A stretch of DNA of 31,273 nucleotides from Planctomycetota bacterium (GCA_039024355.1 JBCCQL010000001.1:1-31273); one strand, 5' to 3'; shown: positions 21,112-25,318, counted from the stretch's first letter. Numbers and translations: made by a program. Notes: generated from the sequence alone by a model not told the origin.

Positions 21112-21140
21112 TTTACACGGCATGCCTGCGGTGCTATGGT
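21112..21140 (+). promoter_or_regulatory. Sigma70-type promoter for the riboswitch operon
   Basis: TTTACA (21112-21117), 17-nt spacer, TATGGT (21135-21140) with an extended -10 TGn. The predicted start near 21147 lies just 5' of the riboswitch P1. Confidence 0.75.
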
Positions 21141-21150
21141 CTACGGCGTT

Positions 21151-21362
21151 GCGTTGGTGGTTGGCCCCGCCGCGTCTGGCGGGCCGACAGAACAGGGAAT
21201 CCGGTGCAAACCCGGAACGGCCCCGCCGCTGTAACCGAGCACAAACGCCCACCCATTCCAGAGCCATTGCCTAGCCGCACTTCCCGCTACGTCAGGGGCG
21301 AGCCGGCACGGTGAGAAGGCGGGGCGGGCCAATCGCTCGGGAGTCAGAAGACCTACCAACGC
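21151..21362 (+). promoter_or_regulatory. Cobalamin (AdoCbl-class) riboswitch
   Basis: AGGGAATCCGGTGCAAACCCGGAACGGCCCCGCCGCTGTAA core, GCCATTG...GAGAAGGC and B12-box AGTCAGAAGACCTACC (21342-21357). P1 GCGTTGGT (21151-21158) pairs with ACCAACGC (21355-21362). Confidence 0.95.
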
Positions 21363-21497
21363 TTGGCCAGCGGCCGGCTTCGAGGGAAAGCCGCCGCCGG
21401 GACTGCCTGAAAAAGGGCGTGAAGCACCTGCGTAGCCGCCTGCGCCGGCCGTGAAACGGTCGGGCAGAGCCCGCGGGGATGCTGCGCACCAAGCGTC

Positions 21498-22370
21498 GTG
21501 GCACGAGCACCATCCCCACGCCCAGCATCCCTACGCCGTGGCAAGGCCTGCGTCGCGCGGCCGCCGGTGTCAACGGGCCCGCGTGGCTTCACGCTGGTCG
21601 AGTTGCTGGTCGTGATCGCCATCATCGGCATGCTGGTCGGCCTGCTGCTGCCCGCGGTGCAGGCCGCCCGCGAGGCCGCCCGCCGCACGGGCTGCGCGAA
21701 CAACCTGAAGCAGATCGGCCTGGCGCTCACCGCGCACCACGACACGCACGGCCGGCTGCCGGTGGGCTGCCTCGAGTTCCGGCGTTTCAACCAGGGCATG
21801 GAGCGGCGGTCGCTGGCGTGGAACATCGCGGTGCTGCCCTGGCTAGAAGAGGCGGCGCTGCACAGCCGGGTCGACCGCACGCAGGCCTTCGACAGCCCGG
21901 CGAACGCCCCCGCGGCCGGCCGAGTGGCGCCGACGTTTGTCTGCCCGTCCAGCACGCGGGGCGCCACGCTCGAGCAGGGCCGGGGGCCCACCGACTACGG
22001 CGGCATCTACGGCGAGCGGATCAACGGCCCCTTCCCCTGCCCCGCCGGCGCCAACCCGCTGCTGTGCCCGCAGGGCGTGCTGATCCACGAGGTCGCCATC
22101 CGGCTGCGGCAGGTTACCGACGGGGCGTCGCACACGCTGGCCGTCGCCGAAGACACGGGCTTCCCCGACGGGCAGTGGATCAACGGCAAGAACCTGTTCG
22201 ACCAGTCGACGGCCGTCAACGCGGCGCCCGCCTTCGAGAACGACATCCGCAGCGAGCACCCCGGCGGCGCGTTGGGGCTAACGCTCGACGGCGCCGTGCG
22301 ATTCTTGCCCGAGGCGATGGACCTCCGGGCGCTGGCGGCCCTGTGCACCCGCGCGGGGGGCGAGCCATGA
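21498..22370 (+). CDS. DUF1559-family prepilin-type protein with H-X9-DG motif
   Basis: RG|[43 protein letters not shown] and C-terminal [12 protein letters not shown]. Start ambiguous (GTG 21498 or GTG 21567; see findings). Confidence 0.93.
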
Positions 22371-23404
22371 CCACACACCACACGCAGTTGCCGGCCCTGC
22401 TGGTGCTGTTGCTGGGCGTGCCCGCGGCCGCGCGGGGCGGGGCGATCGACTTCGAGCAGCCGGCGCTCGGCGCAGCGGTGTTCGAGAACGGTCAGAACTG
22501 GCCCGGCGAGTTCGCCGCCGGCGGCGCCGTGCTGAACAACGCCTACGACACCCGCTTCGGCAGCTGGAGCGGCTGGGCGTTGTCCCGCGCCACCGACACC
22601 ACGACGCCCGGCTTCACCAACCAGTACAGCGCGTGGCCGGGCGGCGGGGCGGTCGGCTCCGTGCAGTACGCCGTGGCGTACAGCGGGGCGGACGTCGGCG
22701 CCGGCGTGGCGCCGGTGATCACGCTGCCGGCCGGCGCCACGCCGGTCTCGGCCGACATCGCCAACACCACCTACGCGGCGCTGAGCATGCAGACGGGCGA
22801 CCAGTTCGCCAAGGCGTTCGGCGGCCCGACGGGTGACGACCCCGACTGGTTCTTGCTGACGATCAACGCCCTGGACGCGGCCGGCGCCACGCTGGCGAGC
22901 CTGCCGTTCTACCTGGCGGACTTCCGCCCGGCCGACAACAGCCAAGACTTCATCCGCGAGGGCTGGACCACGGTCGACCTCTCGCCGCTGGGCCAGCCTG
23001 CGTCTGTGGCGCTCGAGTTCCGGCTCACCTCGTCGGACAACGCCGGCGGCAACGGCATGAACACGCCCGCCTACTTCGCCCTGGACAACCTTGTGCTGCA
23101 GACCACGCCGCCGGGCGACTTCAACGGCGACGGCCTGGTGGACGGCGCCGACTACGCCCTGTGGCGGAACACGGCCGGCCCCGCCGAAGAGCTGGACCTC
23201 TGGCGGGCGAACTTTGGCGCACCCAGCCCGCCCGCTACCGCGCTGGCCGCTGCCGGCGTGCCGGAGCCCGCCGCCGCGTGCGTGCTGCTGGCCAGCCTGG
23301 GGCCCGCCCTGCTGCGGCGACGGCCGATCAACGTCCCCTCGGGCACGCGTCGTACCGACCGGTTCGCTACGGACTCACGTTTTTGCTTTCACACCACCCG
23401 CTGA
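22367..23404 (+). CDS. DUF4465-domain PEP-CTERM protein (candidate cobamide-binding)
   Basis: ATGA overlap with the DUF1559 stop, signal peptide, WSGWALS..TD...FTNQYSA, NTTYA, YLADFR, W..VDL and SSD...[12 protein letters not shown]. Then a [14 protein letters not shown] tail and VPEP-TM-RRR. Confidence 0.88.
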
Positions 23405-23427
23405 TCCTCACCACCTGGAGAGACCCG

Positions 23428-24240
23428 ATGAACCGTTTGTTGATTGCTGCCGCTGCCTGCCTGGCCCCCGCCGCCGCCCTGGCGGGCCCGTTCGACGCGA
23501 CCGGCATCGCGTTGGACGACCCCCGCATCGAGCGCTGGGCGACCACCGTGGTCGGCCCCGTCGTGCGTGGCCCCATCGACATCAGCACGCCGGGCTCGCC
23601 GCTGGCGTCGTTCGGCACGGCCGCCGAGGCCATCGGCCCCGCGTCGACCGACCCGACCGCCGTCGTGAGCCTGGGCGACGGCGGCTCGATCACCGTCGGC
23701 TTTTCGGCGCCGATCTTCGACACGCCGGGCCCCGACTTCGCCGTCTTCGAGAACAGCTTCGAGTTTGACGGCCAGGTGTTCGCAGAGCTCGGCTTCGTCG
23801 AGGTCAGCACCAACGGCGTCGACTTCTTCCGCTTCGACGCGGTGTCGCTCACGCAGACCACGACCCAGCTCGGCCCCTTCGACGGCATCGACCCGACCGA
23901 CGTGCAGAACTTGGCCGGGAACCAGCCCGCCGGCGTCGGCACGCTGTTCGACCTGGCGGAGCTGGCGGGCGCCTCGCCGCTGCTGGACGTCAGCAACGTC
24001 AACTTTGTGCGGATCGTAGACGTGGTCGGCTCGATCGACCCGCAGTTCGGCTCGCTCGACTCGGCCGGCACGCTGATCAACGACCCGTTCCCGACCGATT
24101 TCGCGAGCGGCAGCGGCGGCTTCGACCTCGACGCCGTCGCCGTGCTGCGGCCCGTGCCTGAGCCGGCTGCCGGGCTGCTAGCCGCCGTGGGTGTTGTGTG
24201 CGGCTTTGGCGCCCGGCGGGCGCGGCGCCGCACGGCGTAG
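23428..24240 (+). CDS. PEP-CTERM cell-surface protein with BtuH-like domain
   Basis: GGAG before ATG 23428, signal peptide, VSLGDGGSITVGF..PI.D.PGPDFAVFENSF...ELGFVEVS.NG, GFDLDAV and VPEP-TM-RR. The BtuH likeness is from recalled motifs, not a search. Confidence 0.8.
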   Translation: MNRLLIAAAACLAPAAALAGPFDATGIALDDPRIERWATTVVGPVVRGPIDISTPGSPLASFGTAAEAIGPASTDPTAVVSLGDGGSITVGFSAPIFDTPGPDFAVFENSFEFDGQVFAELGFVEVSTNGVDFFRFDAVSLTQTTTQLGPFDGIDPTDVQNLAGNQPAGVGTLFDLAELAGASPLLDVSNVNFVRIVDVVGSIDPQFGSLDSAGTLINDPFPTDFASGSGGFDLDAVAVLRPVPEPAAGLLAAVGVVCGFGARRARRRTA

Positions 24241-24261
24241 ACCTTTGCAGCAGGGACGACC

Positions 24262-24519
24262 ATGGCGACCACCGACGCCGCGGCAGGCGGCCGCGAACCG
24301 GACTACTACCTCGACAACGGCTGCGTGGTATTCACGGCCGCCTACCACCTGCGGCGCGGCTCGTGCTGCGGCAGCGGCTGCCGCCACTGCCCGTACGGCA
24401 ACGCACCGGGCGACATCGGAGCCCCAGGCCAGACTGTGAGCGAAGCGGCGGGCCATCCGCTTGGGTCTACGCCTGGGTCTACTTCGGCGGGCGATCCAGC
24501 GGAGCCGAGCCGTGGATGA
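24262..24519 (+). CDS. Small Cys-rich DUF5522-type protein
   Basis: [32 protein letters not shown]. Starts 21 nt after the previous stop. Confidence 0.85.
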
Positions 24520-25318
24520 CCCGGCCGCGCACAACGCACGGGCGTGGGACGCGCTGGCCCGCGGCGGCGCCAAGCTGGCCCGCCCGGCCGTTGACGAAGA
24601 CTTCGCCAACCCGCTGCAAACGATCGACCCGCTCGGCTGGCTGGGCGGGTCGATCGCCGGCTGGCGGGTGCTCTGCCTGGCGGCCGGCGGCGGGCGGCAG
24701 AGCGCCCTGTACGCGGCGGCCGGCGCCCGGGTGACGGTGCTCGACATCAGCCCCGAGATGCTCGCCCGCGACCGCGAGGTGGCCGCCCACCGCGGCTACT
24801 CCGTGCACGCCATCGAGGGCTCGATGGACGACCTGTCGATGCTCCCCGCGGCGGCGTTCGACGCCGTGGTCCACCCGGTCAGCACCTGCTACCTGCCCGA
24901 CGTGCAGGCCGTCTACCGCCAAGTGGCCCGCGTCACCCGGCCGGGCGGGCTGTACGTCAGCCAGCACAAGTCGCCGGTGAGCCTGCAGGCGTCGCTCAAG
25001 CCGGCGGGCGGCGGCTACGCTATCCAGCAGCCGTACTACCGCGACGGCCCGCTGCCCCCCGCCGAGCAGCCCAGCCGCCTGCGCGAGCCGGGCACGCTCG
25101 AGTTCCTGCACCGGTGGGAGGAGCTCGTCGGCGGGCTCTGCCGGGCCGGCTTCGCCGTCGAAGACCTTGTCGAGCCGATGCACGCCGACGCCGCGGCCGA
25201 GCCGGGCGCCTTCGGCCACCGCTGCCGGTACGTAGCGCCGTACGTGCGGATCAAGGCCCGGCGAGCGGAGGGCCCATCGCAGGATACAGCCGCGGGGCCG
25301 AAGGTAGTCATCGCCTAA
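24512..25318 (+). CDS. Class I SAM-dependent methyltransferase
   Basis: GGAG then GTG 24512, overlapping the DUF5522 stop by 8 nt. [32 protein letters not shown] and RPGGLY. Confidence 0.88.

Follow-up and report, generated by a model that had tools for sequence, protein, structure and literature searches.

An operon headed by a cobalamin riboswitch in a marine planctomycete was analysed in a 31,273-nucleotide stretch of DNA (the window), which is the entire contig C1 of a marine-metagenome assembly (Planctomycetota bacterium, GCA_039024355.1; 3.57 Mb, 608 contigs, 81% complete). Judged from sequence, the operon is probably repressed by cobalamin and devoted to the extracytoplasmic capture of cobamides by a bacterium that uses vitamin B12 and is auxotrophic for it. 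Behind the riboswitch lie five co-oriented genes on the plus strand (g1 to g5; Table 1), encoding a type IV pilin-like DUF1559 protein, a secreted DUF4465 protein, a secreted PEP-CTERM protein, a small DUF5522 protein and a methyltransferase. A scavenging module of secreted binders and a pilin-like protein had been proposed from the window alone (the sequence-only reading), and both gene linkage and protein domains support it.

Neighbourhoods were surveyed around homologs of g3 in 20 Planctomycetota genomes (at least 12 families) and on five further contigs, from Botrimarina hoheduenensis, Tautonia plasticadhaerens, an Armatimonadota, a Tectimicrobiota and one other source. In all 25 loci, distributed over three phyla, a cobalamin-type riboswitch precedes the g3 homolog on the same strand, and in 24 the two are within about 2.5 kb of each other; by chance, fewer than 1e-3 riboswitches would be expected per locus. 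The pilin-like gene and DUF4465 recur in these neighbourhoods. In the reverse test, DUF4465 was the next gene in 3/3 cases where a close homolog of g1 lay on a long contig, and two of these three contigs carry the full order riboswitch-g1-g2-g3-g4-g5.

The order of the genes differs between lineages: riboswitch-pilin-DUF4465-g3, riboswitch-pilin-g3-DUF4465, riboswitch-g3-DUF4465-pilin and riboswitch-DUF4465-g3-pilin were all found. The cluster pilins of the Armatimonadota and of three distant planctomycete lineages are nevertheless homologous to each other over their full length and carry the same H-X9-DG signature. In one genome (G350, 99% complete) there are just two cobalamin riboswitches; one heads g3 alone, while the second (L067, G350:C27 2193-5010) heads a g1 ortholog, a DUF4465 gene and a gene for a CobA/BtuR-type corrinoid adenosyltransferase. 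Because the linkage outlasts rearrangement, and DUF1559 paralogs (about 30-40 per genome) make up roughly 1% of genes, shared ancestry alone is insufficient, and these arrangements are best read as a functional link of the pilin-like protein to the binders.

Riboswitch and products of the first three genes

RF00174 is the only Rfam family detected by Infernal in the window. The match lies above the gathering score of 31.5 bits and covers the full model, confirming the complete B12 riboswitch of the sequence-only reading; no second cobalamin riboswitch was found in the 81%-complete assembly. The sigma70 promoter claimed ahead of it was recovered as a consensus match alone, with one such site observed against 0.2 expected from shuffles of the 6 kb region, and its -10 element adjoins the first positions of the riboswitch model. 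The hairpin that directly follows the aptamer and precedes the g1 start codon by 175 nt shows compensatory changes at 5/10 predicted pairs across the seven orthologous leaders. No intrinsic terminator follows it, and it may serve the expression platform as a regulatory or kissing-loop helix.

By its sequence, g2 is a bona fide DUF4465 protein (PF14717, cut-off 25 bits), belonging to the BtuJ family of Bacteroides. Eight divergent DUF4465 proteins bind B12, including one from a planctomycete ('Pan', Mucisphaera calidilacus), and the contacts involve the tyrosine of an HI-loop motif, (G/N)TPAY(F), and a second tyrosine in the DE-loop helix (PMC13398666, 2026). Both are present in g2, as NTPAYF (residues 232-237) and NTTYAA (133-138), the latter aligned with NTVYAY in D5EK51 from Coraliomargarita akajimensis. 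The match of g2 to B12-bound structures is strong (9HMU, E = 2e-22; 9QPM, 5e-17; 9FCT, 1e-16), and identity to the crystallised, B12-bound D5EK51 (9HMU) is about 40%, as estimated by eye from the alignment. The g2 protein is predicted to bind B12. Like D5EK51 and 'Pan', g2 combines the Pfam family, the NTPAYF loop and the DE-helix tyrosine with a signal peptide; unlike them, it has an added dockerin-like repeat (DFNGDG at residue 251) and a PEP-CTERM-like tail (VPEP at residue 298). More than 70% of DUF4465 members are predicted lipoproteins. This targeting was not seen in g2, which has a Sec-type signal peptide and no lipobox cysteine (by eye).

PEP-CTERM (PF07589, cut-off 20.7 bits) is the sole Pfam domain of g3, which belongs to a large family of 3,674 clusters at 50% identity. 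Single-sequence phmmer searches with g3 gave no match in the PDB. A 30-sequence profile of the family gave a single one, to residues 388-473 of 8BLW_B (E = 7.5e-4; 9e-3 with a broader profile). The AlphaFold model of g3 (predicted local distance difference test, pLDDT, 88) likewise has 8BLW_B as its only significant Foldseek match (E = 1.1e-4, probability 1.0, template-modelling score 0.41). This chain is BtuG1 of B. thetaiotaomicron, and the matched part is its C-terminal extension (the H domain), which is homologous to BtuH2. The BtuH domain, published in 2022, is a globular domain of about 250-270 amino acids common to BT1488, BT1490 and BT1956, in which a two-metal site (Asn, Glu, Asp, Ser, Glu) holds the nucleotide-loop phosphate. 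Invariant residues of the g3 family are N109, E120, D198, D211 and D233, and an N-x-F...E spacing is reminiscent of N399/F401/E406 in BtuH2, although g3 could not be aligned with 7BIZ residue by residue. The term 'BtuH-like' is a reasonable yet weak assignment, and g3 may bind B12. Because of its strict riboswitch linkage, the family is a candidate new B12-binding domain family. The partner domains of its long members (PKD, beta-propeller, RTX and type IX secretion tails) are uninformative on B12.

An exosortase, which the surface-sorting hypothesis had called for, is encoded on contig C15 of the window's genome (PF09721, 102.7 bits, or 129 with a neighbouring same-frame piece). Orthologs of g2 also give weak matches to PF07589.

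Planctomycete genomes each encode tens to hundreds of DUF1559/H-X9-DG prepilins. The g1 protein has 267 amino acids in the database gene call (the longest open reading frame begins at 21498) and a leader, MSTGPRG/FTLVELL, with predicted cleavage after the glycine (TIGR02532, 29.7 bits) and Glu5 present. Its first 60 or so residues match the helices of solved pilins (PilA, PilE, GspG and geopilin; profile search, E 1e-10 to 1e-5), and the model places a helix at residues 10-61. It carries the H-X9-DG motif, and its database homologs are named 'H-X9-DG protein'. A prepilin peptidase (Peptidase_A24) is encoded on contigs C8 and C495 of the same assembly, and the genome also encodes several secretins. 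In the prepilin site, Glu5, the long hydrophobic alpha-1 helix and the presence of peptidase and secretins in the genome, g1 resembles the pilins of type IV pili and type II secretion systems. It differs from them in its DUF1559/H-X9-DG globular domain, and the operon has no gene for an assembly ATPase or platform protein.

In one protein of the g3 family (P0142, 680 amino acids), the g3-family domain (residues 4-246) is joined to a segment (421-471) with an N_methyl prepilin motif and the beginning of a DUF1559 domain. Either the two are genuinely fused or separate gene calls have been merged.

Table 1. Features of the riboswitch-led operon (window coordinates)
Feature	Position	Strand	Evidence
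Candidate sigma-70-like promoter	21112-21140	+	TTTACA, 17 nt spacer, TATGGT, extended TG; 9/12 consensus matches
Cobalamin riboswitch aptamer (RF00174)	21138-21374	+	Infernal 89.3 bits, E = 4.7e-21; model 1-189, not truncated
Hairpin directly 3' of aptamer	21376-21392	+	CGAGGGA loop invariant in 7 orthologous leaders
g1, type IV pilin-like DUF1559 / H-X9-DG protein	21567-22370	+	PF07596 166 bits; PF07963 29.4 bits
g2, secreted DUF4465 protein, dockerin-like repeat, PEP-CTERM-like tail	22367-23404	+	PF14717 167.8 bits
g3, secreted PEP-CTERM protein, large family without Pfam model	23428-24240	+	PF07589 21.6 bits (cut-off 20.7)
g4, DUF5522 small Cys-rich protein, no signal peptide	24262-24519	+	PF17653 68 bits
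g5, class I S-adenosylmethionine methyltransferase	24512 (GTG; alternatively TTG 24461)-25318	+	Methyltransf_11 and related families

Proposed capture of B12 and its route into the cell

Carrier genomes lack CbiC and encode B12-binding enzymes, including a MetH-sized frame. In the window's family, all six genomes tested have a MetH-sized B12-binding protein and no CbiC.

In the proposed mechanism, low intracellular adenosylcobalamin would let the riboswitch leave the leader open, and the genes would be expressed. The g2 and g3 proteins would be exported via Sec, sorted by exosortase to the cell surface or envelope through their PEP-CTERM tails, and there bind cobamides with high affinity. Prepilin peptidase would cut g1, which would serve as a membrane-anchored or fibre-incorporated partner and take the loaded binders, or their ligand, through the envelope. 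The DUF5522 protein (g4) may be a cytoplasmic accessory that is specific to the clade and independently tied to B12 salvage. The methyltransferase gene (g5) would be a housekeeping-type neighbour that, in the window's family, came to form the end of the transcript. Entry into the cell in this family would apparently proceed without BtuB/TonB or a BtuCD of FecCD type, the translocators being encoded elsewhere.

Several results weigh against such a cobalamin-repressed, surface-displayed capture system. The leader contains neither a recognisable terminator nor a sequestered ribosome-binding site as expression platform, and folds no better than shuffled sequences (z = -0.82). Among public sequencing runs, the window sequence occurs in the source marine metagenome (DNA) and in no RNA run. 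The AlphaFold model of g1 is poor (pLDDT 67), and its globular domain matches no solved structure and gives no direct sign of contact with B12. The description of g2 as DUF4465-PEP-CTERM stands for DUF4465, but the PEP-CTERM part is sub-threshold: a VPEP motif, hydrophobic stretch and RRR are visible at residues 298-319 and score below the PF07589 cut-off. Moreover, g2 runs 26 residues past the arginine cluster (window 23327-23404), so that the signal is not at the extreme C-terminus; this extension may reflect a stop-codon shift or a real tail. For g3, the link with BtuH is weak by profile (7.5e-4) and by Foldseek (1e-4), and BtuH2 itself (7BIZ) is unmatched by the g3 sequence and profiles and outside the Foldseek top 50. 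The window's genome is only 81% complete, which makes its own lack of transporters merely suggestive. Finally, TonB-dependent receptors are found in 22 of the 29 true g3 carriers, the same proportion as in the phylum background (receptor barrel in 295 of 401 sampled Planctomycetota genomes).

Since the receptor rate of carriers equals the background, the module does not replace TonB-dependent receptors in general, and TonB independence was rejected as a family-wide property. The claim that it acts rather than a TonB receptor is supported for a subset of carriers. Searches used the receptor barrel (PF00593), plug (PF07715), TonB_C (PF03544) and FecCD permease models. In the window's genome no match to PF00593, PF07715 or PF03544 was found, and FecCD gave only a weak match (32.7 bits) on another contig. 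The seven genomes of the window's family that were searched have one cobalamin riboswitch each, apart from one genome with two. One of the family (G441), assembled as a single contig, has the same five-gene operon behind its sole riboswitch. It has neither receptor barrel nor plug, its FecCD match is a 39-bit partial one, and B12-dependent enzymes are present while CbiC is absent. The searches do detect these transporter families here, because a sister genome (G495) gives clear matches to barrel, plug and FecCD. In the window's lineage, these patterns make entry of B12 independent of TonB and BtuCD rather likely.

An accessory relay would reconcile the module with canonical transport. The binders would capture cobamide as in Bacteroides and feed an unlinked TonB-dependent receptor and an ATP-binding cassette importer, with the pilin a structural component or a passenger. 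The receptors of the 22 carriers, and of four of the seven genomes searched in the window's family, are consistent with this, as is the Tectimicrobiota locus, where a riboswitch-led TonB-dependent receptor adjoins the riboswitch-led g3 homolog. In a published neighbourhood analysis, 40-55% of DUF4465 genes adjoin TonB-dependent receptor or plug genes (PMC13398666). However, eight carriers at 90-99% completeness lack both barrel and plug, and the seven of these tested for TonB_C lack it too. Among five carriers tested for a receptor near a cobalamin riboswitch (G240, G350, G212, G329 and G121), G350 has no receptor and the other four have none in such a position. The lone receptor of G240 was considered as a hidden BtuB and rejected: it is TOL_0244-like, scores 105 bits against a BtuB model cut-off of 600, and its gene sits between a histidine kinase gene and gatA. 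A relay also leaves the persistent linkage of the pilin gene unexplained. It is possible, if somewhat doubtful.

Some type IV pili and the pseudopili of type II secretion transport cargo by way of a secretin; competence pili (ComGC) and GspG pseudopili are examples. The DUF1559 pilin might, in a retractile fibre or pseudopilus acting through a secretin, be the component that crosses the envelope in TonB/BtuCD-independent B12 import, fed by the exosortase-sorted BtuJ- and BtuH-like binders. No pilus is known to us to import a vitamin, and this proposal for g1 is put forward only tentatively.

It is unlikely that g1 is instead a tethered binding protein, anchored to the inner membrane through its pilin-like helix, that hands B12 to a permease as an analogue of BtuF. 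The Pfam identifier of DUF1559 is SBP_bac_10; the B12-linked subfamily is short (about 265 amino acids) and lacks model positions 186-223; and same-family genomes without a true FecCD need a non-canonical inner-membrane step. Against this, Foldseek and profile searches for a periplasmic-binding-protein fold in the globular domain matched the pilin helix alone (on the pLDDT 67 model), and a G/FTLVE cleavage-methylation site with Glu5 marks pilins that assemble. Sequestration, with surface binders hoarding, withholding or storing cobamides in the envelope or exopolymer uncoupled from import, is quite improbable: no operon inspected has a transporter gene, and BtuJ1 is described as an extracellular vitamin reservoir in a preprint (bioRxiv 10.1101/2025.07.01.662609), but repression by intracellular B12 would suit need-driven acquisition, G350 has CobA in the same transcript and DUF71-B12 salvage genes come after g3-like genes.

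The last two genes and the flanking DNA

The five genes are as tightly packed as the sequence-only reading had it, with successive spacings of -4, +23, +21 and -8 nt. The gene cluster has one weak terminator-like site (23361-23375, inside g2). As this lone site falls below the 3.1 expected by chance, there is effectively no terminator inside the operon. The arrangement is real in the window, but it is not a unit of five conserved genes, since the methyltransferase is unlinked outside the window's family.

DUF5522 was found after g3 in same-family genomes only. Annotation at cluster level (Atlas clusters) shows DUF5522 fused to DUF71 (Diphthami_syn_2) and to a BtuF-type Peripla_BP_2 domain. DUF71-B12 is a subgroup of PP-loop ATPases clustered with genes for B12 salvage and transport (PMC3541065). 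In two planctomycete loci (L062, 9689-10390 and 12545-13222; L063, 9792-11760), DUF71 is encoded immediately after riboswitch-led g3-like genes; the window has no DUF71 gene. From these fusions and neighbours, g4 is plausibly B12-related.

The overlap of g4 and g5 (8 nt, GTGGATGA) suggests that g5 is probably co-transcribed with g1-g4 in the window. Orthologs of g5 with 50-72% identity are present in almost all genomes of several related families, for instance in 22/23 genomes of one and 47/47 of another. As a part of the module, the methyltransferase was rejected: in 14 genomes of other families its orthologs (50-67% identity) lack g1-g4 neighbours, and the roughly 6.3 kb upstream of them contain no riboswitch. 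Within the window's family, g5 is always last in the riboswitch cluster, even where other PEP-CTERM proteins stand for the binders. It looks like a resident Pirellulales gene in front of which the module landed.

Two loci of the same family, L101 (G510:C20) and L102 (G527:C1), consist of riboswitch, g1 ortholog, two other secreted PEP-CTERM proteins and the methyltransferase. These PEP-CTERM proteins (about 300 and 270 amino acids) have no BLAST match to the DUF4465 domain or g3 and may be divergent or replacement binders. The second gene of the Botrimarina locus (291 amino acids) resembles the first of them. At L046 (G007:C144, 671-10417), 7 kb separate a riboswitch from the g3-like gene downstream, which comes after the gene for a PQQ/PKD/NosD repeat protein of 1,519 amino acids. 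Beyond the g3-like gene are a gene for a homocysteine S-methyltransferase and another riboswitch.

The 3' limit of the cluster is a convergent membrane-protein gene at 25346. Upstream are genes for a sigma-70 factor, a DUF3592 protein and a GDSL lipase (19964-20869); downstream are an aroE-like gene and genes for a BioD-like ATPase and a GH57 enzyme. None of the flanking genes scanned with Pfam is related to transport and the locus contains no btuB, btuF or btuCD, as had been stated for the window. In three same-family relatives, an ArsP_1 permease with HMA domain is encoded directly upstream of the riboswitch (L033, 6604-7863; L064, 5445-6689; L066, 5540-6592), at the position taken by the lipase gene in the window. 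This permease is a recurrent neighbour outside riboswitch control.

The aroE-like (shikimate dehydrogenase) gene at 26534-27448 is read as two open reading frames (26534-27232 and 27254-27448), and L064 and L066 have intact versions of 280-284 amino acids at the same position. At the contig edge (31200-31273), the 5' end of the GH57 frame, on the minus strand, is a repeated LPTPNSQ unit, which probably reflects tandemly repeated DNA ahead of the true GH57 start.

Comparison with known systems and significance

The nearest known system is the Btu relay of Bacteroides thetaiotaomicron (BtuJ1/J2, BtuH1/H2 and BtuG-BtuB, from riboswitch-controlled loci). The two have in common a cobalamin riboswitch, a DUF4465 (BtuJ) binder and, putatively, a BtuH-domain-like binder that are both secreted and surface-targeted by prediction, and a host that uses B12 without de novo synthesis. 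They differ in the anchor, which would be PEP-CTERM/exosortase here and is a lipid there. In addition, btuB, btuG, btuF and btuCD are missing from the planctomycete locus, and apparently from whole genomes in the window's family; the unit includes a gene for a type IV pilin-like protein; and g3 is only remotely related to BtuH.

The sequence-only reading knew of no description of such a system. This is in part pre-empted, as B12 binding by DUF4465 proteins, a planctomycete member among them, is already published (PMC13398666). That paper has zero occurrences of PEP-CTERM, exosortase, pilins or a Planctomycetes-specific context. In the literature searched, DUF1559 is mentioned in just four papers and nowhere tied to cobalamin; nothing was found on Planctomycetes, cobalamin, riboswitch and pilin together, nor anything relevant on PEP-CTERM with a cobalamin riboswitch; and DUF5522 is unmentioned. 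Relative to that literature, DUF4465/BtuJ binding and BtuH are known, while the pilin link, PEP-CTERM anchoring and a context without transporters were not found. There is a substantial chance that a truly new uptake principle lies behind the module.

Vitamin B12 is a keystone micronutrient in the sea. To our knowledge, its acquisition by non-producers is detailed only for Proteobacteria and gut Bacteroidota, where uptake centres on the TonB-dependent BtuB. The binder families known from there recur in Planctomycetota and Armatimonadota with another kind of anchor and an apparently obligatory pilin-like partner, and in G441 without recognisable BtuB or BtuCD, which points to a different delivery of this 1.3-kDa cofactor across the Gram-negative envelope. 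Carriers of the module exist in culture (Botrimarina hoheduenensis and Tautonia plasticadhaerens), and experiments are therefore feasible. The locus is the first specific and testable clue to a ligand of a DUF1559 protein. If import by the pilin is true, the DUF1559 family, so greatly expanded in Planctomycetes, would gain its first ligand and function, and the module would be the first vitamin uptake system of the pilus type.

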